Shown piece by piece: positions 13,862 through 38,779 of a stretch of DNA of 64,000 nt. The notes beneath the pieces were generated by a model, which had not been told where the DNA came from, searched no databases, and saw only the letters and a list, made by a program, of their open reading frames with translations. This stretch comes from Alphaproteobacteria bacterium (GTDB taxonomy: Bacteria; Pseudomonadota; Alphaproteobacteria; TMED109): contig OZ244069.1 of NCBI GenBank assembly GCA_965215575.1, positions 2,293,155 to 2,357,154 of the forward strand, given 5' to 3'. The translations under genes were made by a program, and so were the position numbers. Every line of letters begins with the position of its first letter. The stretch's first letter is position 1.

Positions 13862-13939
13862 CGAATCTTTCAGCGAAGCCCGAAACTTTGTGCCGCGAGG
13901 CGGGGCACCACGGGGCCGGACGTGAATTGGTCCGCCCTG

Positions 13940-17978: not shown

Positions 17979-18008
17979 GCTCGCACCTCCCGCTCAATCT
18001 GCAGCGTG

Positions 18009-18869
18009 TCAGTTCTCGAGATCAAAGACCATATGCACCTGACCGGTGCCGATCGAATTCTCGTAAGCGGAATATCGTTCGCCACAAGCCTTGCAGGCGC
18101 GGCCGCCGACGGCGCCTAGGAGCATCAAGTAGTGGGCGAAGCGCCCTTCCGGCCCATGGCGGCGGTACTCGGGGTAGAAATCGTAAACGGCGGCGTGGTC
18201 GCCACGCTCCCAGCATTCCAGCACATATCGATCCGCAGCTTGCGCCTCCAGCGTAACAACGTGGCTCGGATCGTAGTCCTGATGGTCAAAGAGCGCCCGC
18301 AACGGCCAGAATCGATGTGACAGGCCGCCGCTCCCGAGAAGAGCGACGCGGGCCGGTGTGCGTTCTATTGCGGCAGCGATCACGCCCCCAAAGGCGAGAT
18401 AGTCGTCAAGTTCCGCGGTCTGGCAGACGCCTACGGATAGGACTTTCTCGTCGCGGCGGATGTGATGCACGAGGTTAATGGTGGGGTAGTGGTGAGGCAG
18501 CGTCGGCGTGGTGACGTTGGTTGTCCTGATGCGCCGCTCCTTCGCCACGCTGCGGATTGCTTCGGCAAGAACCGGGGCACCCGCATAGTCAAACGGGACT
18601 TCGTGTATGACCCGGGGTACCTCTTCCGAGGTGTAGACGCCCTTATGGTGTGTGGCGCCAGCGATGACATGCTCGGTGGTGGTGAACCAGTGGGTATCGA
18701 AGATCACCCAGCTATCAACCGCCTTGGCCTCGAAGTGTGCTCGCAAGCGCTGGTAACCCTCGACCAAAGTGGTGTCTTGCCCACTGCCTCCAAGTCTCCG
18801 CCGGACATCTTCCTCCAGCATTACGGTCGGCACGTGTCCGACCACTGCCGCGCTTACGATCTCACCCAC
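18009..18869 (-). CDS. hpaD: Homoprotocatechuate 2,3-dioxygenase-like class III (LigB-type) extradiol dioxygenase
   Basis: Collinear with E. coli HpcB features: HVPT near the N-terminus, FDTHW, GVYTSEE, SGGLSHRF, GTGQVHMVF. GTG 18869 lies 8 nt after GGGAG. ATG 18908 is the alternative start. Confidence 0.8.
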   Translation of the reverse strand: MGEIVSAAVVGHVPTVMLEEDVRRRLGGSGQDTTLVEGYQRLRAHFEAKAVDSWVIFDTHWFTTTEHVIAGATHHKGVYTSEEVPRVIHEVPFDYAGAPVLAEAIRSVAKERRIRTTNVTTPTLPHHYPTINLVHHIRRDEKVLSVGVCQTAELDDYLAFGGVIAAAIERTPARVALLGSGGLSHRFWPLRALFDHQDYDPSHVVTLEAQAADRYVLECWERGDHAAVYDFYPEYRRHGPEGRFAHYLMLLGAVGGRACKACGERYSAYENSIGTGQVHMVFDLEN

Positions 18870-20334
18870 GCGTTGGGCTCCCGAAGCTTGCTCTTTGGAT
18901 TGCCACATTCTTGACGTCGCAGAAGAAGTCGAAACTCCAACGTCCGCCTTCGCGACCGATGCCGGATATACCGGATCCCCCGAAAGGTGCTGCCAAGTCG
19001 CGAACGAAGAAGCAATTGACCCACACCGTGCCTGCGACAACGGCGCCGGCCACACGCTCGGCCTTGGCCTGATCCGTCGTGTAGACCATGGCGGCAAGCC
19101 CGTAGCGGGTGGCATTGGCGAGTACGATCGCCTCGTCCTCGTCCTCGAACACGTTCCACGTGAGCACCGGACCGAACACCTCTTCCTGGAAAATCTCGTC
19201 GGTGGGCGAAATGTCGGTCAGTAGGGTCGGTTCATAGTAGAGCTCACCGAACGGATGCTGCCCCCCTCCGAAAAGGGGCCGAGCCCCGTTCGCAATCGCT
19301 CGCTCCACATAACCGTGGACCCGCGCGTGCTGGCGGGGGTGGATCAGGGGGCCGACCCGCGTTGCAAGCGCCCGAGGATCGCCGACGGGTAGCTTCGCAG
19401 TCTCGACGCGGACCTTGCGGAGTAGTGAGTCCGCAACGCTTCTCTCGACGAGCACTCGGGTCCCGGCGAGGCATACCTGCCCCGCGTTGATGTATTGATG
19501 GGCAATGGTGCGTGCGGCGGCGTCTGGGTCGGCGTCGGCGAACACGATGAACGGCGACTTGCCGCCAAGCTCAAAGCTGACCGGTGTTAGCGACCCGGCC
19601 GCGGCTTGACCGATCAGGCGGGCCGTCTCGGGAGAACCTGTAAAGCTGATGCGATCGATGTCCGGATGCGCCGCCAGGGAAGCCCCGGCGTCGGTGCCCG
19701 CTCCCTGCACGACGTTCAATGCGCCAGGAGGCAGGCCGGCCTCGCTCGCGATATCGGCCAGCATCGAGCAAGTAAGTGGCGCCCACTCCGGCGGTTTGAG
19801 CACAACCGTGTTGCCCGCCGCCAAGGCAGGGCCCGCCTTCCAGGTGCTCAACATCAAGGGCGCATTCCAGGGCGTGATCAGCGCCGCTACCCCTGCGGGC
19901 TCGTAGTGAACGTGGTTGTCGACGGTGCTTCCGGCAATAACATTGCCGTGCATCCTGGACGCTAGTTCAGCGAAAAAACCGATATTGTGCGCACATCGCG
20001 CCATGGTGTTCTTTCGGTTGCCGAGGAGCAGGGATCCATTGTCGTGAGTCTCGACAGTGGCGAGATCGTCGATGCGATCACGGATGCCCGCTGCTAGGCG
20101 CTCCAGGATAGGTCTGCGGCCGTCGGGCCCGAGCGCGGCCCACTGTGGGAACGCGTCCCGGGCGGCCTGTACCGCCTCATCCACGTCCTTGGCAGTGCCG
20201 GCAAAGACCTCGCCGAGGGGCTGCCGGTCAACGGGCGAGAACACCTCGAATCGGTCGGATGAGGCAATGCGCTGACCGCCAATCCAGTGTCGGGTGTCGA
20301 CATCAACAGAGGCGATTCGAAGGTGATCCGACAT
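18862..20334 (-). CDS. hpaE: 5-carboxymethyl-2-hydroxymuconate semialdehyde dehydrogenase-like aldehyde dehydrogenase
   Basis: ALDH core (ELGGKSP, catalytic-Cys region GQVCLAGTR) plus the HpaE-like tail FVRDLAAPFGGSGISGIGREGG. The start is trimmed to ATG 20334, 4 nt after the hpaB stop. Confidence 0.8.
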   Translation of the reverse strand: MSDHLRIASVDVDTRHWIGGQRIASSDRFEVFSPVDRQPLGEVFAGTAKDVDEAVQAARDAFPQWAALGPDGRRPILERLAAGIRDRIDDLATVETHDNGSLLLGNRKNTMARCAHNIGFFAELASRMHGNVIAGSTVDNHVHYEPAGVAALITPWNAPLMLSTWKAGPALAAGNTVVLKPPEWAPLTCSMLADIASEAGLPPGALNVVQGAGTDAGASLAAHPDIDRISFTGSPETARLIGQAAAGSLTPVSFELGGKSPFIVFADADPDAAARTIAHQYINAGQVCLAGTRVLVERSVADSLLRKVRVETAKLPVGDPRALATRVGPLIHPRQHARVHGYVERAIANGARPLFGGGQHPFGELYYEPTLLTDISPTDEIFQEEVFGPVLTWNVFEDEDEAIVLANATRYGLAAMVYTTDQAKAERVAGAVVAGTVWVNCFFVRDLAAPFGGSGISGIGREGGRWSFDFFCDVKNVAIQRASFGSPTRG

Positions 20335-20338
20335 GTGT

Positions 20339-21805
20339 CTATGGCGCGGCGTCCAGGTGCGCCCAGAATGCTGGAACTTGGCTCCACTCTTGGTCCCTCT
20401 GCGCCGCGACATGAGCCAGCGTAAAGGCGCGCGCTGCGGAAGCGAGATAGTAGCGCTCGTAGAGTTCCGTCCGCGCCCCAAGCGCGGAGCCCGCGAAATC
20501 CCAGGCGGTTCGGAACAAGCGGCTTCGCTGCTCGGGATCCACGCCGCCCGTACCCGGCAGGTAGGAGTTGAGCAAGGGGCGGAGGTCGGGATGCCCGAGT
20601 TCAGATTTTGAGGGCGTCGCGAGCAGATTGTGCGAGGCGATGAGCTTGATGATCTCATTCACCCGAGCCATCCACCCCGGCAGCGTCGGGCGAAGTGCGC
20701 GGAACGGGGCCTCATTGCAGAACCAGGTGCCGTCGCCGAATTCATGTGCGTCGGCTTCCGCTGCACGAATGGCGGCGCGGGTGAGTTCGGCGTAGCTCCA
20801 GATCTCTCCCAGCATCTGCATCACGTCTGGCCGCCGGCTCTGGCCGATGGTCTCAGCCATGCGGCAGCAGAGCTCGTAGGCAAACTCCAGCTTGACCATC
20901 GCCCGAATGCAGGTCTGCTGCATGACATTGCCGATCCAACCACGGGCCATGACGGCGTTATAGATTTCCGGATCCCCGTCCAAGAAGATGCGATGCCGTG
21001 GTATTTCCACGTTGTCGAACACGACAAAGGCGTCCTGCTCGTCGAAGCGGGAGGAAAAGGGTTTGTCGAAAGGGTCGGCTTCGAGCCCGTAGTGATCTCG
21101 GCAGAGGATCTTGAGGCCAGGGGTGGACAGCGGAATCGAGAACACAAGAGCCACGTCGTGACGATCTTTCGGGATTGGTTGGCCGGGATAGACGGCAAGC
21201 TCATCGGCGAATGGCCCTAGCGTGGCTAGGATCCGGGCCCCGCGTACGATGATCCCCTGGCTGGTTTCATCCACCTTCCTCAGCGCGACTTCACCGTTGA
21301 CGCCATCGTAGGGCGCGATCCGCCCGTCCACGGTGGGGTGAATGATGGTATGGGTTAGGGCGAGGTCTCGCTTGGCGACATGGCGCTGAAAGGCGGCGAG
21401 CTTCTCGGCGCCTTGCGCATTGCCGTTGGCGGACCAGGCGCTTGGCTGGCCGGCAAATCCGGCAAACGTAAGGTTCACGTAGTCGGGTGTGCGACCGAGC
21501 ATCCCCACGCTGTAGCGCGCCAGCCGTTCGAGGCCGCAGTGACGGCGGTGCAAATCGTCAGGGCTGCGCGGAATGAGATGGCTGATGCCGGTCGGTTGCT
21601 TCGAAATCGGATCGGCGACGATGCAATCTTCGGAGTGGAGGTGCTGCCAGTCGAAGAAGCCGGATATCCCTTGGAGCGAGCCCCTGAATCCCGAGTGCTC
21701 GGTGACGTCAGGTACCTGTTCTCCGCCGATCCAAACCTCTCGCCCGTCAGCGCGCAGGCCGCCAACGTATTCGGCCCCGGTTCTGGCTGCCATTTGACAA
21801 CTCAT
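20339..21805 (-). CDS. hpaB: 4-hydroxyphenylacetate 3-monooxygenase oxygenase component family protein
   Basis: A 488-aa ORF whose N-terminus GAEYVGGLRADGREVWIGGEQV and length fit the HpaB family. ATG 21793 is an alternative start. No hpaC reductase is nearby. Confidence 0.8.
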   Translation of the reverse strand: MSCQMAARTGAEYVGGLRADGREVWIGGEQVPDVTEHSGFRGSLQGISGFFDWQHLHSEDCIVADPISKQPTGISHLIPRSPDDLHRRHCGLERLARYSVGMLGRTPDYVNLTFAGFAGQPSAWSANGNAQGAEKLAAFQRHVAKRDLALTHTIIHPTVDGRIAPYDGVNGEVALRKVDETSQGIIVRGARILATLGPFADELAVYPGQPIPKDRHDVALVFSIPLSTPGLKILCRDHYGLEADPFDKPFSSRFDEQDAFVVFDNVEIPRHRIFLDGDPEIYNAVMARGWIGNVMQQTCIRAMVKLEFAYELCCRMAETIGQSRRPDVMQMLGEIWSYAELTRAAIRAAEADAHEFGDGTWFCNEAPFRALRPTLPGWMARVNEIIKLIASHNLLATPSKSELGHPDLRPLLNSYLPGTGGVDPEQRSRLFRTAWDFAGSALGARTELYERYYLASAARAFTLAHVAAQRDQEWSQVPAFWAHLDAAP

Positions 21806-21815
21806 TTGAAACGAA

Positions 21816-21835
21816 ATGATTTGATCTTAAATCAT
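21816..21835. promoter_or_regulatory. Perfect palindrome ATGATTT-N6-AAATCAT just upstream of hpaB start
   Basis: Read directly. It lies in an AT-rich patch 11-30 nt upstream of ATG 21805. A second palindrome, CTATCG-CC-CGATAG, is at 21869-21882. Confidence 0.3.
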
Positions 21836-22556
21836 CATCCTGCGAGTGTCAATTTATCGCTGTTTTTGCTATCGCCCGATAGGGTGGGCGAGTGCGCTTT
21901 CCCCCTTGGAGCTGCGACCTGTTGGTCAGATCAGGGTGAGGAATCCTTGTGCTCATGTTCTAGTCCCTGTCGAGTATGTCCATTGCAAGCGGGAAAACGG
22001 TCGGCACCAACAACAGGAAGGATTCGATACGTCGGGCATTGCTTGGGGCCTGCGGCTGGATCTGGGCTGCGCAAGGAACAGATACCTTGACGGGGTCGCT
22101 CGAAGGAAATGATGGCTCAACGTGACCGCTGGCAGAGGGGAGTCGGCCGAGCACAGGGGCTCGATGCCGAGGGAGTGCGAGACTGCCTCGGAAGTGCTAT
22201 CGCGGCGACGGACTAGCGAGCCTTCCGAGCACGGACGGCAATGGGGCGCGAACTGCTGGTCAGAGCCGCATTTCATTTCGCTGCCGATTTGGCCGGCTTT
22301 GGGACTTGGCGGTGGACGGCATCTCAGCGTAACAGGTTGCGGTTGTCCTGGGGTCCTCGCTGACTTGATGAATTCGCTCGAATGTGATCCATCCATCGGG
22401 CATGGCCGGCCTTGCCTGATCCGGCGCCCGCTACGCTAGAGGGCCGCGTGCGGGTACGGAGCGGGGTTGTTGCCAGCTGGTCACCGGTTCAGATTGTTCG
22501 CCAAACCCGGCTTCTGGTAGGGTGCAGCGACCCGGCAACAGGCGGAGTTTGCCCCA

Positions 22557-23357
22557 ATGTACCGACCCGGCCTCGCTCTCTTAGCGGCCTGCACAACCCT
22601 CCTAGTCGTCGGTGGCACGCCGCGGGCGGGAGACTACGACCCGATGCGTTCGGCCCTGTGGGCAGATATGCACACAGCGTTCCTCGGGGATGGACCAGTC
22701 AAATACGACTATCAGGTCCGGCTGATCATCCCGCGCACGGTTGAGGACGCGTTCAGTGTTCCATTGGTGGTCGAACTGACCGACCGCATTCAACCCGTCC
22801 AGGAAGTGGTGGTGATCGCGGAAAATAATCCCATCCAGACCGCCGCCCAGATTTTCCCGAGGCGGGCGATCCGCTCGGTCGGAATGAATATTCGCCTTGA
22901 GCAGAGCACGCCGGTTCGCGCTGCAGCGCGCGATGCCAACGGTGTGTGGCACGTCGCGAGTGTCAGGGTTGAGGTCCTGAATCCTGGAGGTTGCACCGCG
23001 GCGGGCGGAGCAGGCAGTGCAGAGAATCCGCCCGGCACGATCGCGATGAAGCGATTCAGACGGCCGAAGAGCGTGACGCGGCTCAAGGTCGGCATCACCC
23101 ATCCGATGGATACCGGTCTGGCAATGGACCTGGACGGCGCAATCGTCCCCGCCTACTTTGTCGATACGGTGACGCTTGCCGATACGGCGGGCCCGATCGC
23201 TGACCTTGTTACGTCGGCTGCGATTTCCACGGATCCGAATTTCTATTTTGACCTACCTGACCGACTGCAAAGCGTCCGCGTCTCCGCGTCCGATTCCAAG
23301 GGCCTCACCTTCGATTTCCTAGAGGCGTCACGCGACGATCCGAAGGGCGAGATCTAG
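22557..23357 (+). CDS. SoxY-SoxZ-like fused sulfur-carrier protein (quinoprotein dehydrogenase-associated type)
   Basis: Signal-like N-terminus. The SoxY-like half ends in VEVLNPGGCTAAGG (Cys146, nt 22992-22994). The SoxZ-like half has VGITHPMDTGL, IVPAYFV and ISTDPNFYFDL. Confidence 0.7.
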   Translation: MYRPGLALLAACTTLLVVGGTPRAGDYDPMRSALWADMHTAFLGDGPVKYDYQVRLIIPRTVEDAFSVPLVVELTDRIQPVQEVVVIAENNPIQTAAQIFPRRAIRSVGMNIRLEQSTPVRAAARDANGVWHVASVRVEVLNPGGCTAAGGAGSAENPPGTIAMKRFRRPKSVTRLKVGITHPMDTGLAMDLDGAIVPAYFVDTVTLADTAGPIADLVTSAAISTDPNFYFDLPDRLQSVRVSASDSKGLTFDFLEASRDDPKGEI

Positions 23358-23460
23358 AAAACCGGCCATGCCTAGAAGTGTCCGGCCGGTGCTGGAACGC
23401 GGGCACTAGTCGGAAAAACGCGCCGACCAGCGCTTGCGCCTAGATGGGAGATTTGCGGCC

Positions 23461-23904
23461 ATGTGCACATGGATCCGAAATATGGTTGTGATGGCCGCCG
23501 TCCTGGGACTCTCCGCGAGCTTGGGCGCTAACCCTGGCTTGGCGGCAGCCGGATCGCCCCCCGTCGGCCCGATCGATGCAGTCGAGACCGGGTCCGATCT
23601 CAAATTCGCCTGCGGCCAGGAAGCCGAGGGCTTCGAGGACGTGGTCGGGGAACAATTCCATCGCTGGATGCTGATCGTCCAGTGCCGCGCTGTCGTCGGC
23701 GCGATCACCACGATGATCAGGTCCGGGCAATTCGCCCTCGACGATGCGCCGCGTTGGCAGTGCGTTACAATTCCCGAGGATCTCGGCGAACTGTCGGCGA
23801 CGTTCGTGACCTGGGTCGGCCGCCGGCCCGCGCTGATGCGCGAATCCGCCGCGGTCGCCTTCGTAGAAGCCATCGAACTCAGTGCGCCGTGTCGGGATTC
23901 CTGA
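23461..23904 (+). CDS. Hypothetical secreted protein, 4 Cys in mature part
   Basis: High GC3. Signal peptide MVVMAAVLGLSASLGA. No family recognised. Competing minus-strand ORFs (23406-24062 and 23440-23925) look like antisense artefacts. Confidence 0.45.
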   Translation: MCTWIRNMVVMAAVLGLSASLGANPGLAAAGSPPVGPIDAVETGSDLKFACGQEAEGFEDVVGEQFHRWMLIVQCRAVVGAITTMIRSGQFALDDAPRWQCVTIPEDLGELSATFVTWVGRRPALMRESAAVAFVEAIELSAPCRDS

Positions 23905-24075
23905 GCAATCAACCGGTCTGGCCAAAGTGCTGACGCATCAATTTGTTCTGTAACCTTGCGGACCAGTTCGAACAAGCTGGATTGGGCAGGCGCTGGGCCG
24001 GCGGTTTGACCGCGCGGGTAACCCGGTGACAATGATCGCTCTTTGGGACGGATTGAATTCAAGAAGGAACCTTAG

Positions 24076-24501
24076 ATGAAGTTGGCGGCTCCCATTCTTG
24101 CGCTCCTCATGTGCACCGGCGTGGTGCAGGCGGCGATGGAAGATTGTGCACAAGGGCCGGAAGGCAACCTGTGCAAGGCCCAAAACGGCGATGCGCCCGC
24201 GATGTACATGATCGGGCGCGAGGCCTATGACAAGGCGCGCGAGACCGGGGATTTCAGCGAAGCCTATCTGTGGGCAACCCGCGCGCGGGAAGCCGGCTTC
24301 CTCGGCGGCAGGATGCTGTTCAAGATGGTTCATCTTCAGGCGGGCCAGGGACGTCACCACGATAATGTGGAGGCCCACCAATGGATCACCAAGGCGATTG
24401 CAGAGGGGGAGGACTATCTGGTTCCTTGGAAACGCCGGCTTGAAGCCATCATGACGCCCGAGCAGATCAGAGCGGCGCTTCGCGCGGCGCTGGCGGAGTA
24501 G
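24076..24501 (+). CDS. Secreted Sel1-like/TPR repeat protein
   Basis: GGAA RBS and signal peptide LALLMCTGVVQA. Repeat-like strings are AMYMIGREAY...EAYLWATRAREAG and EAHQWITKAIAEG. Confidence 0.55.
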   Translation: MKLAAPILALLMCTGVVQAAMEDCAQGPEGNLCKAQNGDAPAMYMIGREAYDKARETGDFSEAYLWATRAREAGFLGGRMLFKMVHLQAGQGRHHDNVEAHQWITKAIAEGEDYLVPWKRRLEAIMTPEQIRAALRAALAE

Positions 24502-24594
24502 GGTGCGGTCGGCTTTATGTCGATAAGGGGAGACGCGGACGGCAGTGCGCGATCCGCGCTGCAATTGAGATTCGGGGGCTGCCGACTTTAGACG

Positions 24595-25056
24595 CTAGTC
24601 TTGGGAGATTGCCCTCCGCGGGCCTTCCATATTTGCGGCCTCTTCCAGGGTGATGCGGTTGCCAGCGTCGTCGTAATAGACGCCCTTGATTTTCCCTTCG
24701 ATATACGTCGCGATGCCGGCGATCTCGCGCTTCGACATCGTGCTCTTGAATTCAGGCATGCCGCGGTCGCGAATCCCGACTGTGATGACGTAAACCAAGC
24801 CGTCGTGATCGAACAGTGTGGCGCGCAGATCGGCTGCGAAACCGCCATAGGCTGGCCCACCGCGCCCGTCGGCCTTGTGGCATCGCGCGCATTGGTTCGG
24901 AAATTCGGTAAATACCATTGGCGGCGGACCTGAACGTCGGGGCTTTTCGTTGTCCGCCGATACCGGGCTCGCCGACGCCGCGTAAAACGCTGCACCAATA
25001 ACTACCGCTGCTGCCAGGCTGCCGAGAGTTCGTCCTTGCTTGGTGAAATCTTGCAT
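24595..25056 (-). CDS. Class I c-type cytochrome, probable electron acceptor of the adjacent PQQ dehydrogenase
   Basis: Signal peptide, a single CARCH haem motif, and a downstream Met (RGMPEF). It lies 166 nt downstream of the PQQ dehydrogenase on the same strand. Confidence 0.8.
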   Translation of the reverse strand: MQDFTKQGRTLGSLAAAVVIGAAFYAASASPVSADNEKPRRSGPPPMVFTEFPNQCARCHKADGRGGPAYGGFAADLRATLFDHDGLVYVITVGIRDRGMPEFKSTMSKREIAGIATYIEGKIKGVYYDDAGNRITLEEAANMEGPRRAISQD

Positions 25057-25222
25057 TTCTTCAAATCCGGCCCATTGGTCGGGTAAGGCCTATCTGAGGC
25101 GCTTCGCCTGCGAGGCAAATTGGCTAGGCGCGTCACTGCCGGAGTCTGGACTAACCAATTGCGGGCTTAGGAAAAAAGTTGTGGGCCGGCGCAGGGGCCG
25201 GCCCACATTAGGAGTGTGCGCT

Positions 25223-27049
25223 CTAGAGCGCGAATACGTACAGAACGTTACTCGGTACAGCGGCCTTCAACTCGGGTGTCGAGTCGGTGAACCACTGCGG
25301 CCAAGCACCGCCCAGGCCGACCTGGATGGCGATGTACTGCTTGCCGTCAGCTTCGTAGGCCATTGGCGGAGCATTGATCGACGAGCCGGTCTCGAAACGC
25401 CACAGCTCTTCGAGAGTCGTGTCGTCAAGAGCGACCACCGCGCCGTCAGCCGTACCAGTGAACACCAGGCCGCCCGCCGTCGACAGAATGCCGCCCAGCA
25501 TCGGGAACTCGGTCTCCCACTTGCGTACGACAACGCCGGTCGAAACATCGATCGCGGTCACGCTACCGGTAATACGGCCCGAGCGCGGGTCGTCAAAGGT
25601 GAAGTAAGGTGCCCCACCCAGGAACCACTGACGCGTCGCCGGATCGAAGTTCGTCGGGGAGACTGAGGCAAACGCCTTGTTGCAGCTCTCGATCACCGGA
25701 ATGTAGTACAGGCCGGTGTGCGGGCTGTACGAGGTCGGGGGCCAGTTCTTTCCGCCAGTATGCGCTGGGCAGGAAATACCCTCGATCTCACTCCGCGCAC
25801 CGACTTCGGTCAACTCGCCGCGATGCGCCGCACTGCCCGCAGCGTAGCTCTGGACATCGGCGTCGGGGTCGTACGCGGCTGGCCGGCCGTTGGCGTCGAG
25901 CCCGTCCGTCCAGTTCAGCTTCTTGACGAACTGCGTGCCCCAAACGAACTCGCCGTTCGAACGGTCGAGCGCGTAGGCAAAACCGTTACGGTTGGCATGC
26001 AGGGTCGAGCGCACGAACTGACCGTTGATCACGGTGTCGACGAACGTGTTCTCCGCAATCGAGTCGTAGTCGTACGGGTCGTTCGGCGTGTGCTGGAAGC
26101 CCCAGAGGAACTCGCCCGTGTCGGCATCCACCGCGATGGTGCTGTCGGTCCACAGGTTGTCGCCGGGACGGTAGGCGTTGTCCCAGTCCGGACCCGGATT
26201 GGCGGTGCCCCAGACGATGATGTTCAACTCGGGGTCGTAGGAACCGGTCACCCAAGTCGAGCCGCCACCGGTCTTCCATGCGCCGTAATCGTCCTTCCAC
26301 GTCTCATGGCCAGGCTCACCCGGTCCAGGAATCGTGTGGGTCCGCCAAATTTCCTCGCCGGTGTTGATGTCGAGCGCAGCAATCCAACCGCGGACGCCGA
26401 ACTCGGCACCAGCCATGCCCGTGACCACTGTGTCCTTGACGATCAGCGGAGCGCCGGTGATGGTCTCGGCGATGCCCGGATCGGCCACTTGGCTCTCCCA
26501 GACCAGGGTGCCGTCCGTCTTGTTCAAGGCGCGGATGCGGCCGTCGATGACCCCAGCAATAACGAGATCGCTGTGGAGTGCCACACCGCGGTTGTTGATG
26601 CCGCAGCACAGGACGCTTGGCCCCCAGTCCTTGTCGGCTTCAGGATCCGACTTCCACACCGTGACCGGCTTGCCGCCGCGCACGTCGAGCTTGGTCACCA
26701 CACCCCAACCGGTGGTCAGGTAAAGGAAACCGTCTTCGGCGATCGTCGTGCCTTCCAGGCCTGCGAACGGGAACACCACCGGATCTGTGCCGCCACCCTG
26801 GGCGCTGCCCATGGCATAGGTGAAGGCGACTCTCAGATCACCGACATTGTCCGTGTTGATCTCGCGAAGGGCCGAGAAGCGATGGGCCTCGTAGTTGCCG
26901 TGATGATTGATCCAGTTTCCCGGTTCGTTTTCGCTATTGGCCAGACGGTCATGCGTAACGTCGCCGGCGATTGCCGTTCCGGCAAGCATGGCCGCGCCAA
27001 TTGCTCCAACGGCAAATAGGCGCAGCTTGCTGAATCTATCGAATATCAT
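25223..27049 (-). CDS. PQQ-dependent dehydrogenase, methanol/ethanol family
   Basis: A GGGAGG RBS precedes ATG 27049. Signal peptide, a vicinal disulfide (VLCCGINNRG), repeated W-propeller motifs, and an active-site region TPNDPYDYDSIAE. Confidence 0.9.
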   Translation of the reverse strand: MIFDRFSKLRLFAVGAIGAAMLAGTAIAGDVTHDRLANSENEPGNWINHHGNYEAHRFSALREINTDNVGDLRVAFTYAMGSAQGGGTDPVVFPFAGLEGTTIAEDGFLYLTTGWGVVTKLDVRGGKPVTVWKSDPEADKDWGPSVLCCGINNRGVALHSDLVIAGVIDGRIRALNKTDGTLVWESQVADPGIAETITGAPLIVKDTVVTGMAGAEFGVRGWIAALDINTGEEIWRTHTIPGPGEPGHETWKDDYGAWKTGGGSTWVTGSYDPELNIIVWGTANPGPDWDNAYRPGDNLWTDSTIAVDADTGEFLWGFQHTPNDPYDYDSIAENTFVDTVINGQFVRSTLHANRNGFAYALDRSNGEFVWGTQFVKKLNWTDGLDANGRPAAYDPDADVQSYAAGSAAHRGELTEVGARSEIEGISCPAHTGGKNWPPTSYSPHTGLYYIPVIESCNKAFASVSPTNFDPATRQWFLGGAPYFTFDDPRSGRITGSVTAIDVSTGVVVRKWETEFPMLGGILSTAGGLVFTGTADGAVVALDDTTLEELWRFETGSSINAPPMAYEADGKQYIAIQVGLGGAWPQWFTDSTPELKAAVPSNVLYVFAL

Positions 27050-27232
27050 ATGGGATCCTCCCAGTGCGTTGCCGGCCGCAACGCGAACCGGGTCATGAAA
27101 CCTAGGGACGCGTAAACAGGCACGCACCTCTGCTTCGACCCGAGTTCCGCGTTGTACCGCCACGTCCACTTGATCCGGGGCACCCCGGACCGACGCCAAT
27201 AGTCGCTGTCCGACGTTGGCGCCGCACGGATG

Positions 27233-27577
27233 CTAGCAGCGAAGGATAGAGCCCGCGAATCCTGCCGTTTTGCGCACCTCGGGACCGGTCTCGGGCATTC
27301 GGAGCACCGTCGCTCCGGAAAGAAATCTCATGCTTCCGGCCTCACGGTTCGAAGCTGTGGGTGCGAACGCCAACGCGTGCTTGTCCTCGGTGATGGGCAG
27401 CAGTGCGGTTACGCCGCGCTTGGCACTCGATCGCAGTTCAAGACCGGCGGCATAGGCGTTTGATCGGGAACTGCAGGCGATGCACGTCACCGGTGTGGCG
27501 GCTGTCCGGATTCGCCGTGTTTGGTCAAGACCAGCGGAGTTCAGCGAGGCCGGCTCCGCGACTGGACATTGACTCAA
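27233..27577 (-). CDS. Hypothetical ORF between rhodanese and PQQ dehydrogenase (doubtful)
   Basis: TTG start only, moderate GC3, and no family recognised. Confidence 0.2.
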   Translation of the reverse strand: MSQCPVAEPASLNSAGLDQTRRIRTAATPVTCIACSSRSNAYAAGLELRSSAKRGVTALLPITEDKHALAFAPTASNREAGSMRFLSGATVLRMPETGPEVRKTAGFAGSILRC

Positions 27578-27821
27578 GGCCTAGGGACGAAAGTTGAGCG
27601 CATCGAGTTTCTGTACGCGCTCTTGGAAGCGCTCCCGGACACCGTCCAATGCACTCGTAGTTGTCCGCAGCTGGTGCTGTTCAAACCCTGAGAGCACAAG
27701 GCCGTCGGAACCCAAAACAAGTCTGTCACATCAGAATCTTATGGCGTGCAGAAGGCTTTGCATAAGTCGCGGGAGCGACATGACCGTTCGGTGATCGCGG
27801 GTCGAAGACCTGCTCACTTGA

Positions 27822-28733
27822 TCAGCCTTCTGTGGTGGCCGGGCCGGTCTGAATGGGAAGGTCGGAGTCGGGCGCCCACTCGCCCATTGATCCGTCGTAC
27901 AGGGTGAGGTCGGGGTAACCGAGCTGGTGCAGCATGAAGAGCCCGACGGTCGCGGAGATTCCGCCGCCGCAGTAGGCGACGACGTGCTTGTCCGGGGTGA
28001 CGCCAGACGCCTCGTGCGTTCGCTTTGCGTCTTCCAGGGAAACGAAGGTTCCGTCAGCGGAGTCGAGCAGGTTCGCCGCCGGTACGTTGATGCTTCCCGG
28101 GATGCGACCAGGACGTCCATAGCGGCTCGGCCCCTCACCGAGATGAAACGCGGGCGCGAGCGCGTTCACCATCGTGGAGCCGTCATCGTCCAGTCGGGCC
28201 AATACATGGTCGCGGTCCACAAAAAAACCGGGTTGCGCTCGGGTATCGAACCGGGCGGGCGGATAGCCGCCGGCGACGGCGGACACCGGGCGTCCCTCCG
28301 ACTTCCACTTGGCGAAGCCGCCGTCGAGCACTGCGGCCCCATCGAACCCGAATCCCCGCAACATCCACCAAACCCGAGTCGCCCACATAATGCTGCCGTT
28401 CGAGTAGAGCACCACACGGGATTCATTTTCGATTCCAAGGCGTCCCATGGCTTCGGCGAACTGTTGCTCGGACGGGGCCATGAAGCGGAGCCGCGTGCCG
28501 GAATCCGAGATTTCGCCCTGAATGTCGAGGAACACCGCTCCGGGGATGTGTTCCGCCTGGTACTCGGCGATTCCGGGCACGACCCGGTAGGGCGCTTCGT
28601 CGCCTGGCTCGGCCGGCATGAGCCAAGTGGTGCAGTCCACAATTCGCAGGGCCGGATCCGATAGGTTCGCCTCAAGGGTGTGGGGTTCAATGAGCGCGGC
28701 CGGGTCGCGCCAGTCCTGGAGATCGCTTCGCAC
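27822..28733 (-). CDS. Two-domain rhodanese (thiosulfate/3-mercaptopyruvate sulfurtransferase, SseA-like)
   Basis: GTG start 7 nt after GGAGGG. Contains AEHIPGAVFLD and the active-site loop VVAYCGGGISAT. No signal peptide. Confidence 0.85.
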   Translation of the reverse strand: MRSDLQDWRDPAALIEPHTLEANLSDPALRIVDCTTWLMPAEPGDEAPYRVVPGIAEYQAEHIPGAVFLDIQGEISDSGTRLRFMAPSEQQFAEAMGRLGIENESRVVLYSNGSIMWATRVWWMLRGFGFDGAAVLDGGFAKWKSEGRPVSAVAGGYPPARFDTRAQPGFFVDRDHVLARLDDDGSTMVNALAPAFHLGEGPSRYGRPGRIPGSINVPAANLLDSADGTFVSLEDAKRTHEASGVTPDKHVVAYCGGGISATVGLFMLHQLGYPDLTLYDGSMGEWAPDSDLPIQTGPATTEG

Positions 28734-29181: not shown

Positions 29182-30057
29182 ATGCCCCGAATCAACCGTG
29201 CGATTGAACTACTGGAGCAGGGTCAGTCGGTGTACTGCGATGCTGTCACCGAGCTGACCTATGACAGCGGCCTGCGTCAGGCCCGCACTTGGGCGGACTA
29301 CCTGACCGTTGACCTTGAACACCACCCGTTCGACATGACCCGGCTCCACGACTTCATGCGCGGTCTTGTCGCCGGCGGACCCACGGCCAGTGGGCATCGA
29401 ACACCGGCGGTGTTCATCACACTGCCGACCGATGGCAGTGGCATCCAGACGGTACAGGCCAACCGGTGGATGACCCAGCAAGCGCTGGCTGCGGGGGTGC
29501 ATGGCCTTCTTCTGTGTCATGCGGAAGCTCCGGAGGCAGTGAAGGTCTTTGTGGAGGGAGCAAGGTATTCCTTTCAAACCCTTGGTGTCGGCAGGCACTT
29601 GGCAGAGGGACGGCGGGGCTCCGGGGGGCAAGGGACCGCCGCTGAAATCTGGGGTACAACGGTGGAGGACTATCTGGAGTCCGCCGATGTCTGGCCGCTC
29701 AACCCGAGCGGTGAACTGATGCTTGGCGTGAAGATCGAGAACCGCCGGGCGCTGGTTCAGGTCGAAGCCAGCGTCGCCGTGCCCGGCATCGCCTTCGCGG
29801 AATGGGGCCCTGGTGACATGGGCATGTCTTACGGCTACCGAGAGGCACATGATCCACCGTATCCGGCAGACATGCTGGCGGCGAGAGACCGGGTCAAGGC
29901 TGCTTGCGACCGGACAGGTATCGCTTTTCTCGAAATCATGCAGCGCGACAACGTGATTGAGCTTATCGATGCCGGCGTGAAAATCGGTGCGACAACCGAA
30001 GAGGTTGCTGCCATCGGGCGCCACCACAGCAGAGGCAGATCAGGATCCAACGGCTGA
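29182..30057 (+). CDS. HpcH/HpaI aldolase/citrate-lyase family protein
   Basis: TVDLEHHPFD, LMLGVKIENRRAL and GIAFAEWGPGDMGMSYG. Its 3' end overlaps the convergent choV by 18 nt. Confidence 0.8.
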   Translation: MPRINRAIELLEQGQSVYCDAVTELTYDSGLRQARTWADYLTVDLEHHPFDMTRLHDFMRGLVAGGPTASGHRTPAVFITLPTDGSGIQTVQANRWMTQQALAAGVHGLLLCHAEAPEAVKVFVEGARYSFQTLGVGRHLAEGRRGSGGQGTAAEIWGTTVEDYLESADVWPLNPSGELMLGVKIENRRALVQVEASVAVPGIAFAEWGPGDMGMSYGYREAHDPPYPADMLAARDRVKAACDRTGIAFLEIMQRDNVIELIDAGVKIGATTEEVAAIGRHHSRGRSGSNG

Positions 30058-31179
30058 CTGGCCGGCAGTGGCACCTTGACTCATCAGGCCGCGGTAAATT
30101 TCGTTGTCGCCGATCACGCCGACCATGCGGCCGTCCTCCATCAGCAGGATCGGCCGGCCGGTGCAGTGCCGGAGTTCGATCGCAGCGCGAATGCGCAGGT
30201 CGGGCGTGGCCGTGCAGATCGTCTCACCGGTAAGCGTCGCGGTATCCATCTCCGGCGTGTAGTGCCGGATCGTCACCGGCGCGGGCTCGATGCTGGCTTC
30301 GTCCGGCTCGCCCTTGTCGTTCAATTTCAGCTTGTTGAGCCCGGACCAGTCGAGTTGCAGCGTGTCACCCTGGCGAGGTACGTCGGCGACCGACGTCATC
30401 AGGGATCGACAGCGCAGCACGTTGAGCGCGTCCATGTGGGCGATGAATTCGGCGACATAGGCGTTGGCCGGATTGAGGACGATGGCCTCGGGCTCGCCGA
30501 ACTGGACGATGCGTCCTGCCTGCATAATCGCGATGTGCTGGCCGAGCTTCAGCGCCTCATTGAGGTCGTGGCTGACGAATAGGATCGTCTTGTTGAGCCG
30601 GCGTTGCAGGTCCAGCAACTCATCCTGCAGATGCTCCCGAATCAGAGGGTCGAGCGCCGAGAACGGTTCATCCATCAGCAGGATGTCGGAATCCGTAGCG
30701 AGCGCGCGGGCGAGGCCGACGCGCTGTTGCATACCCCCGGACAGTTCATGCACGAACCGCTCGCCCCACTGGTCGAGATCGACCAGCTTGAGTTGTTCAC
30801 GGACGATGGCGTCGCGTTCGGCCCGGCCGGCGCCGCGCAGTTCGAGACCGAAACTGACATTCTCATGGACAGTGCGCCACGGCAGGAGGGCGAACTGCTG
30901 AAACACCATGGCGATGCGCTCCGTTCGCATGCGCCTTAGCGTGGCGAAGCCAGAATCAGCCATGTCGAGCGAAGCTTCGCCGACGCGCACCAAGACCTGA
31001 CCACGAGTGACGCGGCAGAGGCCGTTGACGGCACGCAGCAGGGTCGACTTGCCGGAGCCCGATAGGCCCATCAGGACGCAGATCTCGCCCTGCCGGACGG
31101 TGAGCGATGCCCCCGCGACGCCGACGACCGAGCCGGTGGCATCCTGAATTTCTTGCCGGTCGGCGCCGCGGTCGAGCAT
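30040..31179 (-). CDS. choV: Choline/glycine betaine ABC transporter ATP-binding protein with C-terminal CBS pair
   Basis: Walker A GLSGSGKST, signature LSGGMQQRVGLARAL, Walker B ILLMDEPFSALD. The conserved N-terminus continues upstream of ATG 31179 to the choW stop, so the real start is probably non-canonical (ATT 31245 or ATC 31236). Confidence 0.85.
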   Translation of the reverse strand: MLDRGADRQEIQDATGSVVGVAGASLTVRQGEICVLMGLSGSGKSTLLRAVNGLCRVTRGQVLVRVGEASLDMADSGFATLRRMRTERIAMVFQQFALLPWRTVHENVSFGLELRGAGRAERDAIVREQLKLVDLDQWGERFVHELSGGMQQRVGLARALATDSDILLMDEPFSALDPLIREHLQDELLDLQRRLNKTILFVSHDLNEALKLGQHIAIMQAGRIVQFGEPEAIVLNPANAYVAEFIAHMDALNVLRCRSLMTSVADVPRQGDTLQLDWSGLNKLKLNDKGEPDEASIEPAPVTIRHYTPEMDTATLTGETICTATPDLRIRAAIELRHCTGRPILLMEDGRMVGVIGDNEIYRGLMSQGATAGQSAVGS

Positions 31180-31248
31180 ATCCAGGGCAGCCGGTATATC
31201 GCCCCCGAACAGGATGTCGACATCCTTCAGTTCGATCGCGTGAATGGC

Positions 31249-32097
31249 TCAGCCCCGCTGACCGCCGCTGCCGCGCTGCTTGCACATGCGGTCGAGCAGG
31301 ATGGCGACGATGACGATGGCAAGGCCGGCTTCGAAGCCCTTGGCGATGTTGACCGTGTTCAGCGCGCGCAATACCGGAACGCCGAGCCCGGGCGCGCCGA
31401 CCATCGCCGCGATCACGACCATCGATAGACTGAGCATGATGCATTGGGTGACGCCCGCCATGATGGTCGGCATGGCGTGCGGCAGCTCAACTTTCCAAAG
31501 GACCTGGCGCTTCGTCGCCCCGAACGCCTCGCCGGCCTCAACAAGCGGTCGCGGCACACCAGAGACCCCGAGGTGCGTGAGCCGTATCGGCGACGGAATG
31601 GCGAAGATCACGGTCGAGATCAGGCCCGGCACGACGCCCAGCCCGAACATGATCATGGTGGGGATCAGATAGACGAAGGTCGGGATCGTCTGCATTAGGT
31701 CGAGCACGGGGCGGAGGGCGTTGTAGAGCCATGGCCGGTGTGCCGCCGCAATGCCCACGGGCACGCCCACGGCGATGCAGATCACCGTGGAGAACAGGAT
31801 GAGAGTCAGGGTCTGTACCGTGGTCTCCCAGTAGCCGAGATTGATCACCAGCATCAGCAGCAACGCGACCGCGGCGACCAGTTTCCACGACCGGTGCAGC
31901 CAGAATGCGAAGCCGGCAAGCGCCGCCACCATGGCAAGCGAAGGAACAGCCAGCGCTAGGCCGGCCACGCCCTCGATCAAGAATTTCAGGATCTCGGACA
32001 GATAGTCGAAAAACCAGGCCCCGTGGTCGAGCAGAAAGTCCGCAAAGGACTTAATCCACTTACCAAGGGGAATCTTCTGGTCGGTCAACCAGTTCAA
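31249..32097 (-). CDS. choW: Choline/glycine betaine ABC transporter permease
   Basis: MNWLTDQKIPLGKW, multiple TM segments, and an EAA-like loop EAGEAFGATKRQVLWKVELP. TTG is the only in-frame start. Confidence 0.85.
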   Translation of the reverse strand: MNWLTDQKIPLGKWIKSFADFLLDHGAWFFDYLSEILKFLIEGVAGLALAVPSLAMVAALAGFAFWLHRSWKLVAAVALLLMLVINLGYWETTVQTLTLILFSTVICIAVGVPVGIAAAHRPWLYNALRPVLDLMQTIPTFVYLIPTMIMFGLGVVPGLISTVIFAIPSPIRLTHLGVSGVPRPLVEAGEAFGATKRQVLWKVELPHAMPTIMAGVTQCIMLSLSMVVIAAMVGAPGLGVPVLRALNTVNIAKGFEAGLAIVIVAILLDRMCKQRGSGGQRG

Positions 32098-32155
32098 GGA
32101 CTACCCCGCGGCGCTAGCCGCCCCGTCCCGCTACCGGGACGGGGCGGAACCGGTT

Positions 32156-33103
32156 CTAGAGACCTAGGCTCGCGTTCACCGCAGCCATGCCGTCGTCGCC
32201 GCTCGTGGTCATCACTCCAGCGAGCCAGTCTTGGAGGATGGCTGAGTTCTCCTTGAGCCATGCCGCTGCCGCCGCCTGGGGCTCTTCTCCGTCTTCGAGG
32301 ATCGCTGTCATGATCTCGTTTTCCATCGCCAGCGTAAATCTCAGGTTGGTCAGCAGCTTGCCGACGTTCGGGCATTCCTCGACGTACCCCATGCGGGTGT
32401 TGGTGTACACCTCTGCACCGCCGAAATTAGGGCCGAAAATGTCATCGCCGCCGGCGAGGTAGGTCATCTCGAACTTCGCGTTCATCGGATGCGGCTCCCA
32501 CCCCAGGAACACGATCCACTCGTCCCTGCGGTTGGCCCGGTCAACCTGGGTCAGCATGCCTTGCTCGCTCGATTCGACCACTTCGAACCCGTTCAGGCCA
32601 AAGGTGTTGTCGTCGATCATGGCCTGGATCAGCCGGTTGCCGTCATTGCCCGGTTCGATCCCGTAGATCTTGCCCTCAAGTTCAGCGCTGTAATTCGCGA
32701 TGTCGCCGAAACTCTGGATGCCACCGTCGGCCGCTAGCTTGTTGACGGCCAACGTGTACTTCGCCCCGGTCAGGTTCTGTGCCACCACCTCGACCGATCC
32801 TTCGTCCCGGTAGGGCGCGATGTCGGCTTCCATGGTCGGCATCCAGTTGCCGAGGAAGACGTCGATATCGCCATTCTTGAGACTGGTGTAGGTGATCGGC
32901 ACTGAAAGCACCGTAGCTGTCGGCTCGTAGCCGAGGGCCTTGAGGACCACCGAGGTGGCGGCGGTTGTCGCGGTAATGTCGGTCCAGCCGACATCGGAGA
33001 ATCGAACCGTCTGGCACGATTCGGAATCGGCCGCCCAGGAGGCGGACGAAAACAACAGAGCAGAAATCGCTCCCAGCACTGCCATACGCACGCTTTTTGT
33101 CAC
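32156..33103 (-). CDS. choX: Choline ABC transporter substrate-binding protein
   Basis: GTG 33103 lies 8 nt after GGAGGA, with a signal peptide. FSDVGWTDITATTA, LKNGDIDVFLGNWMPTMEADIAPY and IYGIEPGNDGN are near-collinear with Sinorhizobium ChoX as I recall it. Confidence 0.85.
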   Translation of the reverse strand: MTKSVRMAVLGAISALLFSSASWAADSESCQTVRFSDVGWTDITATTAATSVVLKALGYEPTATVLSVPITYTSLKNGDIDVFLGNWMPTMEADIAPYRDEGSVEVVAQNLTGAKYTLAVNKLAADGGIQSFGDIANYSAELEGKIYGIEPGNDGNRLIQAMIDDNTFGLNGFEVVESSEQGMLTQVDRANRRDEWIVFLGWEPHPMNAKFEMTYLAGGDDIFGPNFGGAEVYTNTRMGYVEECPNVGKLLTNLRFTLAMENEIMTAILEDGEEPQAAAAAWLKENSAILQDWLAGVMTTSGDDGMAAVNASLGL

Positions 33104-33214
33104 TGCCTTGTCCTCCGATAGGGTTCTGATGTGCGCCCTCGCGTTGGCACGGCGCTCGCTAGGGCTACCATGACGGCCATATCCCTGCAAGGGCGACAGC
33201 GGCAAAACAACCGG

Positions 33215-34873: not shown

Positions 34874-34875
34874 AT

Positions 34876-34925
34876 GGGCAGCTGGGCGCCGTCAGTGGTC
34901 CCTGAGGTTCGCTCTACAGCTGCCC
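34876..34925. terminator. Inverted repeat GGGCAGCTG/CAGCTGCCC between convergent betA and soxG
   Basis: A 9-bp perfect stem (34876-34884 and 34917-34925) with a 32-nt loop. There is no U-tract, so terminator function is only a guess. Confidence 0.3.
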
Positions 34926-34971
34926 GGCCCATTCCTTGAGTCCGCGATAGACCAGGAGGCGCACATCTCAG

Positions 34972-35523
34972 TCATGAGAGCTGAACGTATTCCAGCGCGG
35001 CGTCTCTGAGCCAGTGCGACGTGTACTCGGAGAAACTGCGCGCCACGGTGATTTCGTACAGAAGACCGTCTCCAGGCCGATGCAGCAGGACGGGTGCCTT
35101 CGCGAGCAGGCTGCGGGCGCAGCAACCCGCGCGGAATTGATCCGGGTCGAGGTCCAGCGTCATTCCCTTGGCCAGTACGTCGACCGCCCTCGGACCTGCG
35201 AGCGACAGTGTGACACTGCTGTTGCCGACGATTGCAACCGAGGCGTGGAGTTCGGAGAGGGCGTTCTCGAGCGACTCGGCGATTTTGGTCTCCACGGCTG
35301 CCGGGACTTCGATCACCCACTCATCGGGGCCTAGCCAGAGGATGGCGGCATCGGGCCCTTGGCGACCGGTGTTGGCCGTCGATGGCGGATCCACTCCGAT
35401 GACCTCTTCCACCCCCGCCAAGAATTCGGGGTTTGCGGCATCGCCGCGGAGGTTGATCCGTCCGCGTGGCGGACATTGGGTCAGTGCAACCGCGGGCGCT
35501 TCGGTGGCAGCGGTCTCAGCCAT
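34972..35523 (-). CDS. soxG: Sarcosine oxidase subunit gamma
   Basis: Last gene of the soxBDAG order. ATG 35523 overlaps the soxA stop by 8 nt. Contains INLRGD and ILWLGPDEW. Confidence 0.8.
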   Translation of the reverse strand: MAETAATEAPAVALTQCPPRGRINLRGDAANPEFLAGVEEVIGVDPPSTANTGRQGPDAAILWLGPDEWVIEVPAAVETKIAESLENALSELHASVAIVGNSSVTLSLAGPRAVDVLAKGMTLDLDPDQFRAGCCARSLLAKAPVLLHRPGDGLLYEITVARSFSEYTSHWLRDAALEYVQLS

Positions 35524-38772: not shown

Positions 38773-38779
38773 GACATCC

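Follow-up and report, generated by a model that had tools for sequence, protein, structure and literature searches.

The 64,000-nucleotide stretch of alphaproteobacterial contig OZ244069.1 analysed here (the window) carries, between positions 22557 and 28733, a methanol/ethanol-family dehydrogenase dependent on pyrroloquinoline quinone (PQQ), together with a set of small accessory genes. These open reading frames (ORFs) form two convergent units, one on the + strand encoding a SoxYZ-like fusion carrier, a secreted protein with four cysteines (the 4-Cys protein) and a secreted Sel1-repeat-like protein, the other on the − strand encoding the dehydrogenase and then a c-type cytochrome; a two-domain rhodanese gene lies upstream of the dehydrogenase on the same strand. 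The six ORFs are those named in a first-pass annotation of this DNA, and all are present as described, with coding-type composition (G+C of ~0.65, ~0.5 and ~0.75 at the first, second and third codon positions, respectively). Signal-peptide-like N-termini are found by inspection on five of the six proteins, including the dehydrogenase, the exception being the rhodanese.

The dehydrogenase (25223–27049, − strand, 608 aa) scores 528.6 bits against TIGR03075 (cut-off 480). Its closest solved structure is a quinoprotein ethanol dehydrogenase from P. putida (6zcv/6zcw, ~40% identity), which, from its DFD motif, we take to be PedH; structures of XoxF and MxaF rank level with or below this PedH-type enzyme by bit score. 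In a residue-by-residue alignment with 6zcv the two vicinal cysteines are kept, as are AGxEFG, NP, D-x-D and R, and with them the catalytic residues and the ligands of metal and PQQ. The DYD of the window enzyme aligns with the DFD of 6zcv, supplying the extra Asp that marks lanthanide-dependent enzymes, and D-[YF]-D and Cys-Cys are also found in the clade representatives that were checked. The enzyme belongs to an uncharacterised clade with a lanthanide-type signature, and is probably lanthanide-dependent.

Relatives were gathered from two directions. A scan anchored on the carrier, taking one genome per GTDB species, gave 78 loci, and a dehydrogenase-anchored set, assembled from look-ups of distant members and a metagenome scan with the enzyme, came to 55 non-redundant loci belonging to the clade (at least 58% identity). 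Near-identical loci were de-duplicated by hand, and ORF calls in the fetched loci are heuristic. Counts refer either to the 32 loci whose sequence runs on for 1.3 kb or more downstream of the enzyme gene or to the 22 with both sides covered (fully covered loci), and L-numbers designate single loci, L001 being the window's own contig. All sampled organisms carrying the dehydrogenase clade are uncultured. Skermanella sp. TT6, considered as a possible cultured host, falls outside the clade: its dehydrogenase, the best match among 72,556 plasmids, has 54.7% identity, and its locus includes a cytochrome c gene but no Sel1-like, 4-Cys or SoxYZ-like gene. On soil metagenome contigs (L121–L135), paralogous PQQ dehydrogenases with 46–49% identity to the window enzyme stand in tandem, two to four to an array; the D-[YF]-D signature is present in the arrays checked (L121, L128), and none of these contigs has Sel1-like, 4-Cys or SoxYZ-like genes.

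Two genes accompany the dehydrogenase without exception. The cytochrome c gene is present in 32 of 32 loci, starting 129–444 nt past the dehydrogenase stop, and the Sel1-like gene is likewise found in all 32, 457–943 nt downstream of the dehydrogenase except where an insertion sequence (IS) element intervenes; in L096–L103 the three genes follow one another in the order dehydrogenase, cytochrome, Sel1-like on one strand. The carrier is not central to the module, since the more distant members of the clade are without it and yet always keep the cytochrome and the Sel1-repeat protein. The real core of the module is the dehydrogenase, the cytochrome c and the Sel1-repeat protein. The intervening element, in L002/L009 (12128–14170), encodes a DDE transposase with a DruA domain and lies between the Sel1-like and cytochrome c genes; all five module genes are still full-length matches in this IS-bearing relative.

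The class I c-type cytochrome (24595–25056, − strand) is read here as a 153-aa precursor with a signal peptide, a CxxCH haem motif (CARCH) and a match to Pfam Cytochrome_CBB3 (40 bits). It is not of the PedF/ExaB type (TIGR04494, 20.3 bits against a cut-off of 122), and a sequence search of solved structures returned no relative. The public gene call for it in the window's own contig (L001, 12039–12362) is 107 aa long and lacks the signal peptide, which the 153-aa reading includes, in keeping with calls of 148–154 aa in several relatives. The dehydrogenase probably hands its electrons to this cytochrome. The stretch from the dehydrogenase stop to the cytochrome start contains a strong terminator-like hairpin with a T run (25180–25207, − strand; an 11-bp stem with 9 GC pairs, recognised by consensus match only), a possible attenuator that, by partial termination, might set the ratio of dehydrogenase to cytochrome.

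The start of the dehydrogenase gene is preceded by an apparently structured leader and promoter region of ~210 nt (27050–27262, − strand), marked by a TGCTAGCAT box and a GGTCCGGG/CCCGGATC hairpin. This region is kept in 9–10 relatives in which the preceding gene differs, being in the relatives a divergently oriented polyprenyl synthase gene, which shows that the leader is the dehydrogenase's own control region. RNAalifold predicts 39 pairs, 10 of them with compensatory changes, with a covariation energy term of about zero, and an Rfam scan of 21–30 kb at E ≤ 0.1 gave no matches. The leader could be a regulatory RNA or a promoter element for control by lanthanide or substrate.

The Sel1-repeat-like protein (24076–24501, + strand, 141 aa) is assigned provisionally, from its predicted structure and fold matches. 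The model is all-helical, with stacked hairpins (predicted local distance difference test score, pLDDT, 91), and its top Foldseek matches are Sel1-repeat proteins, albeit with weak E-values; Pfam Sel1 (PF08238) gives 18.1 bits on the window protein against a gathering score of 30.7, and three homologues have a precomputed Pfam Sel1 match. Cys24 and Cys33 are invariant in the alignment of the family, which comprises 60 homologue clusters. A family profile run against a library of 1.84 billion proteins returned 16,679 matches, many of them long multi-repeat proteins, of which just 10 reached E ≤ 1e-30, so the short Sel1 form makes up a small family.

The 4-Cys protein (23461–23904, + strand, 147 aa with the start chosen from the family alignment) has Cys51, Cys75, Cys101 and Cys144 invariant in 32 homologues, and its family of 58 homologue clusters (48–93% identity) includes none with a Pfam domain. 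Its model is a helical bundle with pLDDT ~90 over the mature part, for which the best Foldseek matches are Tai4 (6ije, probability 1.0, template modelling score 0.63) and Rap1a. Pfam Rap1a (PF18602) scores 17.2 bits on the window protein, short of the gathering threshold of 27.7, and sub-threshold Rap1a matches recur in 29 of 32 family members. Tai4 and Rap1a are type VI secretion immunity proteins, with which the 4-Cys protein shares a small periplasmic helical fold and disulfide-forming cysteines; the likeness is of fold alone. The 4-Cys gene always stands beside a PQQ dehydrogenase, and no locus listing shows type VI effector or secretion genes near it. It is present in 17 of the 22 fully covered loci, and in 17 of 17 in the closest dehydrogenase subclade, in two arrangements, the gene following that of the carrier in one and being divergent from the start of the dehydrogenase in the other.

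The two small secreted proteins, described by the first-pass annotation as of no known family, are real conserved genes without a curated family, each with roughly 60 homologue clusters at ~40–93% identity. Both folds, as modelled, are typical of protein-binding modules and neither looks enzymatic; a protein-binding accessory role is predicted for the 4-Cys protein. A low-GC marine subclade (L096–L104, L120), with its dehydrogenase, cytochrome and Sel1-like genes on one strand, has at the position of the 4-Cys gene a different secreted protein of 130 aa with four Cys, for which no homology to the 4-Cys family was detected. Conserved neighbours in this subclade are a NosR-like membrane iron-sulfur protein of 750 aa and a MORN-like repeat protein.

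The 266-aa carrier (22557–23357, + strand) had been proposed to be a SoxY-SoxZ-like fusion, and profile searches bear this out. It scores 158.4 bits against TIGR04557, the model of the quinoprotein-associated SoxYZ-like carriers (cut-off 140), covering profile positions 1–225 of 226, and matches Pfam SoxY over residues 41–146 (71 bits) and SoxZ over residues 169–252 (53.5 bits), the same spans over which solved SoxY and SoxZ chains match. It fails the models for true SoxY (TIGR04488, 44.2 bits versus 125) and true SoxZ (TIGR04490, 43.2 versus 76). The score is just over the TIGR04557 cut-off, and identity to canonical members of that family is 32–38%. A Sec-type signal is followed by the SoxY domain, ending in G144-G145-C146, a variable linker and a SoxZ domain with HPMDTG. 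The G144-G145-C146 motif is invariant in 37 carrier homologues, and in the profile built from them Cys146 aligns with the terminal GGC sulfur-carrying Cys of the SoxY structures 4uwq_B and 2ox5_Y; from this alignment, Cys146 is homologous to the swinging-arm Cys of the Sox system. SoxYZ of that system and the carrier therefore have in common homologous SoxY and SoxZ domains and a carrier Cys at the equivalent position after GG, but in the window protein the domains are fused, the Cys sits on an internal, Gly-rich loop between them (GGCTAAGG) instead of a C-terminal GGCGG arm, and the signal is by inspection Sec-type rather than twin-arginine. Attachment as a lipoprotein through LAAC (residues 9–12) was ruled out, as Cys12 is not conserved in homologues. 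Pfam listings for the locus and for the window contain no members of the soxXA, soxB or soxCD families.

The carrier gene lies 1.9 kb from the dehydrogenase. Close carriers (76–84% identity) occur in 13 loci, namely the window's own contig and L002–L012 and L014 from uncultured metagenome-assembled genomes (MAGs) of Alphaproteobacteria/Rhodospirillales, all with the same five genes in the same order. The flanking contexts of these loci number at least three: hpaB and aromatic catabolism along with the rhodanese in the window, glyQS and ppdK in most relatives and other genes elsewhere, one relative lying among unrelated genes with a glutathione S-transferase gene inserted between the carrier and 4-Cys genes. 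A substrate guessed from such neighbours was rejected, the flanks being wholly different between lineages. Across the dehydrogenase clade, 14 of the 22 fully covered loci have the SoxYZ-like gene and one has a SoxH-like hydrolase, while in L081, L086 and L092 only the carrier is missing from the five-gene set. A further locus, L089 (WLWD01000007.1, 4462–10953; also L090), combines a dehydrogenase of the same clade (86% identity) and its 4-Cys, cytochrome and Sel1-like genes with the full trio of the canonical relay: a TIGR04559 hydrolase (395 bits), a TIGR03865 CXXCW protein (204 bits) and a TIGR04557 carrier (263 bits). The SoxYZ-like gene is thus a lineage-specific addition, which has joined the dehydrogenase clade at least twice, from different branches of the carrier family. 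Because the linkage is kept in 13 loci and at least three flanking contexts, and is repeated with a different, canonical carrier in L089, it is beyond chance.

That TIGR04557 carriers are paired with lanthanide-type PQQ dehydrogenases is itself already known. SoxYZ-like, SoxH-like and rhodanese-like genes adjoin such enzymes in methylotrophs, pseudomonads and symbionts. The system is less under-described than the first-pass annotation supposed: NCBIfam models cover the carrier, the CXXCW protein and the SoxH-like hydrolases, and the association is discussed in two recent papers. The term TIGR04557 occurs in no paper of the library searched. In P. putida's ped cluster, PP_2677 (SoxYZ-like), PP_2678 (a SoxH-like zinc hydrolase) and PP_2666 (a rhodanese-domain protein) are of types conserved with lanthanide- and PQQ-dependent dehydrogenases, and the same gene set is co-transcribed near xoxFGJ in M. 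extorquens, with no clear phenotype (PMC12997753, a 2026 review in Applied and Environmental Microbiology). That review offers hypotheses only (disulfide formation, cofactor stabilisation, or shielding of PQQ from sulfur nucleophiles), which agrees with the first-pass statement that such carriers have no published biochemical role. In lucinid symbionts, a 2024 study found SoxYZ fusions beside a PQQ alcohol dehydrogenase or xoxF, with soxH, and argued that they serve carbon rather than sulfur metabolism (PMC11237559). A study of H. denitrificans also remarked on this group of genes but left it aside (PMC11582611).

The ped cluster, in which PedH/PedE and the cytochrome c550 PedF accompany these three genes and which NCBIfam names the "quinoprotein relay system", is among the closest known counterparts, sharing with the window module a soluble periplasmic PQQ alcohol dehydrogenase with Cys-Cys and the lanthanide-type Asp, a separate c-type cytochrome and a TIGR04557 carrier with a GGC cysteine. 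The window enzyme is, however, only ~40% identical to PedH and its cytochrome is not PedF-type, and in place of the SoxH-like hydrolase, CXXCW protein, PedG-type binding protein and PedABC transporter the module has its Sel1-repeat and Rap1a/Tai4-fold proteins. A hidden Markov model built from 34 SoxH-like hydrolases found no match in the 64-kb window, the C-x-x-C-W motif is absent from every window ORF of at least 50 aa, and none of the six module-region proteins matches TIGR03865. Pfam searches of most large ORFs in the window revealed no MoxJ/PedG-type binding protein, pqq or mxaRSACKL genes either, which upholds the earlier report that canonical mxa/exa accessory genes are missing there. 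The module resembles the XoxF-XoxG-XoxJ and MxaF-MxaJ-MxaG-MxaI methanol dehydrogenase operons in being built of three parts, a dehydrogenase, a cytochrome c of its own and a small partner in the periplasm, whose genes in part of the window clade follow one another in that order on one strand; the lanthanide signature is as in XoxF. It differs in that the third partner is a 140-aa Sel1-repeat protein in place of MxaJ/XoxJ, which have a periplasmic-binding-protein fold, and in having no small subunit. What is new here is the dehydrogenase clade and its two partners, the invariant Sel1-repeat protein and the protein of Rap1a/Tai4 fold. New, too, are the lack of hydrolase, CXXCW and PedG components in cis, the naturally occurring series in which the same enzyme is found without a carrier, with the carrier alone and with the full relay, and an expansion of quinoprotein-unlinked carrier-hydrolase cassettes in marine alphaproteobacteria.

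This expansion comprises ~50 further related marine alphaproteobacterial loci (L013–L063, L170, L171; up to four per genome) with SoxYZ-like paralogues of 35–65% identity and no PQQ dehydrogenase within 10 kb. Directly behind most of the paralogues comes a SoxH-like hydrolase gene, of which a representative scores 410 bits against TIGR04558, and eight module-bearing genomes hold such a separate SoxYZ-like and SoxH-like cassette at a second locus. Tandem SoxYZ-like triplets with a hydrolase are found in L021–L023 and L171, and other paralogues stand alone, among them those of low-GC marine alphaproteobacteria (L058–L063, L015, L017–L020), whose consistent neighbours are genes for an enolase-superfamily dehydratase and for a short-chain dehydrogenase. 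In L044 (8376–10009) and L045 (6293–7876) a paralogue and the gene of a two-domain rhodanese with an evident signal peptide converge, giving a periplasmic carrier-sulfurtransferase pair with no quinoprotein. Canonical adjacency of dehydrogenase, carrier and hydrolase is a feature of Rhodocyclales and gammaproteobacterial loci (L064–L080). Carriers of the window type form a tip clade inside the alphaproteobacterial expansion, with stand-alone paralogues as nearest sisters (neighbour-joining). With the expansion mostly unlinked to quinoproteins, the chemistry of the carrier-hydrolase pair would be more general than the family name implies.

We propose that the locus specifies a self-contained module for oxidising an alcohol or aldehyde in the periplasm, built around the lanthanide-type PQQ dehydrogenase clade, a reading to which, taken with the helper and carrier roles that follow, we give an even chance. 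From knowledge of its family, the dehydrogenase would oxidise an alcohol (or aldehyde) with PQQ and a lanthanide, with electrons going by way of the dedicated cytochrome c to the respiratory chain. MxaJ has a demonstrated role as the chaperone that inserts PQQ into MxaF (PMC12276312), and as no such protein is found here the Sel1-repeat protein, by its co-occurrence, becomes the best candidate for an MxaJ/XoxJ-type role, acting in cofactor loading, maturation or docking. The 4-Cys protein may bind and modulate a protein of the module. The carrier would be dispensable for catalysis, and its Cys146 would most likely pick up a covalent sulfur adduct (a persulfide or a thiosulfonate-type adduct), thereby keeping reactive sulfur nucleophiles off PQQ and the active-site Cys-Cys disulfide, or helping to restore them. 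The adduct could then be cleared by the SoxH-like hydrolase encoded with a paralogous carrier at the second locus, and the cytoplasmic rhodanese would be a neighbour through local rearrangement.

For the carrier's part in this scheme, the handling of adducts so as to shield or restore both the cofactor and the disulfide of the active site, our support is tentative. Sulfur chemistry is suggested since rhodanese-type partners recur, as the CXXCW protein in L089 and as the periplasmic two-domain rhodanese in L044/L045, and since SoxYZ-like genes repeatedly recruit both such partners and metallo-beta-lactamase-fold hydrolases, also far from quinoproteins. The published hypotheses on the relay genes (PMC12997753) point in the same direction. 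Several considerations weigh against our proposal. The Cys146 adduct, the substrate, the metal and the protein contacts are all things we infer, and the chaperone idea for the Sel1-repeat protein is an analogy drawn from two things, its co-occurrence with the enzyme and the absence of MxaJ. With no SoxH-like hydrolase or CXXCW protein in the window, clearance of the adduct in trans is an assumption. In these bacteria the SoxYZ-like and hydrolase cassettes are mostly far from any quinoprotein, so the carrier could serve the periplasm more generally, with no connection to the dehydrogenase; the neighbour-joining tree that places it was built without support values. Random barcode transposon sequencing in P. 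putida, moreover, gave minimal phenotypes for the homologous genes, though without lanthanides (PMC12997753).

A different chemistry for Cys146 is conceivable, in which the cysteine traps the aldehyde produced by the dehydrogenase as a thiohemiacetal, the same dehydrogenase oxidises this to a thioester and a SoxH-like, glyoxalase-II-like hydrolase frees the acid, a scheme that would be a periplasmic analogue both of glutathione-dependent formaldehyde oxidation and of the carrier logic of Sox. The canonical set does pair carrier, metallo-beta-lactamase-fold hydrolase and PQQ dehydrogenase, the hydrolases are weakly similar to the hydroxyacylglutathione hydrolase GloB (E 2e-8), and both the homology of the carrier Cys to the Sox swinging-arm Cys and the independent recurrence with the same dehydrogenase clade in L089 would fit a covalent relay of this kind. 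The hydrolase is nevertheless missing from this module, most carrier-hydrolase cassettes have no quinoprotein within 10 kb and rhodanese-type partners indicate sulfur rather than carbonyl chemistry. PQQ alcohol dehydrogenases, besides, oxidise aldehyde hydrates without a thiol. We consider such a relay, and the analogy it would imply, unlikely. Less likely again, in our estimate, is the far-reaching combination in which the Sel1-repeat and Rap1a/Tai4-fold proteins constitute a hitherto unrecognised class of maturation or control factors for lanthanide-type PQQ dehydrogenases, replacing MxaJ/XoxJ, and Cys146 covalently binds the product or cofactor of the dehydrogenase. Were the helpers such factors and Cys146 a covalent intermediate, the natural enzyme series would reveal the role of quinoprotein-associated SoxYZ-like carriers.

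That the SoxYZ-like gene is instead a mobile paralogue, inserted by chance and without any tie to the dehydrogenase, would agree with the position of the carrier clade as a tip in a large expansion whose other members lie in unrelated contexts, and with the existence of dehydrogenase clade members that do without it. Retention of the carrier beside the module in 13 loci and three flanking contexts speaks against chance insertion, as do the second, canonical carrier that arrived independently beside the same dehydrogenase clade and the wider observation that across Proteobacteria the TIGR04557 family is defined by this association. We regard a neutral neighbour as improbable; the probability left over falls to some other role of the carrier.

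The rhodanese (27822–28733, − strand, 303 aa) was taken by the first-pass annotation for a wired-in accessory. It has two rhodanese domains (Pfam) and matches NF008557 (SseA) below equivalog level (176.8 bits, cut-off 250); its best solved match is E. coli SseA (1urh), where CGGGISA aligns with CGSGVTA, the catalytic Cys included. A gap of 772 nt separates it from the dehydrogenase and contains the conserved leader. In six relatives an orthologue (78–80% identity) is found 4.6–6.1 kb from the dehydrogenase, adjoining a TauD-family gene and with three unrelated genes before the dehydrogenase, and in six other close relatives the rhodanese is absent from the 3.3–6.3 kb sampled upstream. Eight of the 22 fully covered loci have a rhodanese, two of them within 1 kb, and among close relatives it is directly adjacent, as in the window, in this genome only. 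Because relatives keep the leader but have other genes between, the adjacency seems to have arisen by a local rearrangement in which the genes between were lost. Co-transcription with the dehydrogenase was considered and is judged unlikely, since in relatives the leader comes after another gene, of divergent orientation. In a Burkholderiales MAG, another SseA-type rhodanese, also cytoplasmic but not the same, is encoded 390 nt upstream of a dehydrogenase of the same clade, abutting nadE with a 40-nt gap and with no SoxYZ-like gene there. Evidence for recurrent proximity of rhodaneses to the dehydrogenase clade is weak. Of the two linkages in the earlier proposal, then, the gene-neighbourhood survey sustained that of the carrier and not that of the rhodanese, which lies 4.6–6.1 kb away or outside the sampled flank, and we judge the rhodanese a neighbour, not a module component.

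A single sulfur-carrier system of dehydrogenase, carrier and rhodanese, in which the last loads or unloads the carrier or handles a thiol substrate, could appeal to the adjacency in the window, the orthologues near the dehydrogenase in six relatives, the Burkholderiales case and the rhodanese-like CXXCW protein of the canonical relay, but is highly improbable given that carrier and dehydrogenase are secreted proteins and the rhodanese bears no signal peptide, that the gap holds the dehydrogenase's own leader, that relatives have the gene paired with TauD behind three unrelated genes or outside the sampled flank, that the Burkholderiales gene abuts nadE without a SoxYZ-like gene, and that the CXXCW protein belongs to a different family.

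To what is known of lanthanide-type enzymes the locus adds a distinct dehydrogenase clade whose invariant partner is a small Sel1-repeat protein and not MxaJ/XoxJ, and members of the clade without the carrier, with the carrier alone and with the full relay trio offer a ready-made comparative series. If the helpers are needed for maturation, they would be relevant to heterologous expression of lanthanide-dependent dehydrogenases.

TauD-family dioxygenase genes recur near the module, in seven of the 22 fully covered loci; examples are L168 (18069–19960), L169 (15408–16310), where the gene is directly upstream of the dehydrogenase, and L003, L005, L006, L007 and L014, and none is present in the window. 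The module itself lies between two catabolic clusters of the window (12557–22000 and 29182–44367). Its neighbours are an aromatic-catabolism cluster, with an HpaB-type monooxygenase, an aldehyde dehydrogenase, a LigB-type dioxygenase and an FAA hydrolase, and a choline/betaine/sarcosine cluster, with an OpuA-type transporter, a GMC oxidoreductase, sarcosine oxidase subunits and a dimethylglycine dehydrogenase-like protein. Further along, positions 54001–56000 have a G+C content of 0.73, against ~0.62 elsewhere, and include an ORF (54405–55847, − strand) with a third-position G+C of 0.93.

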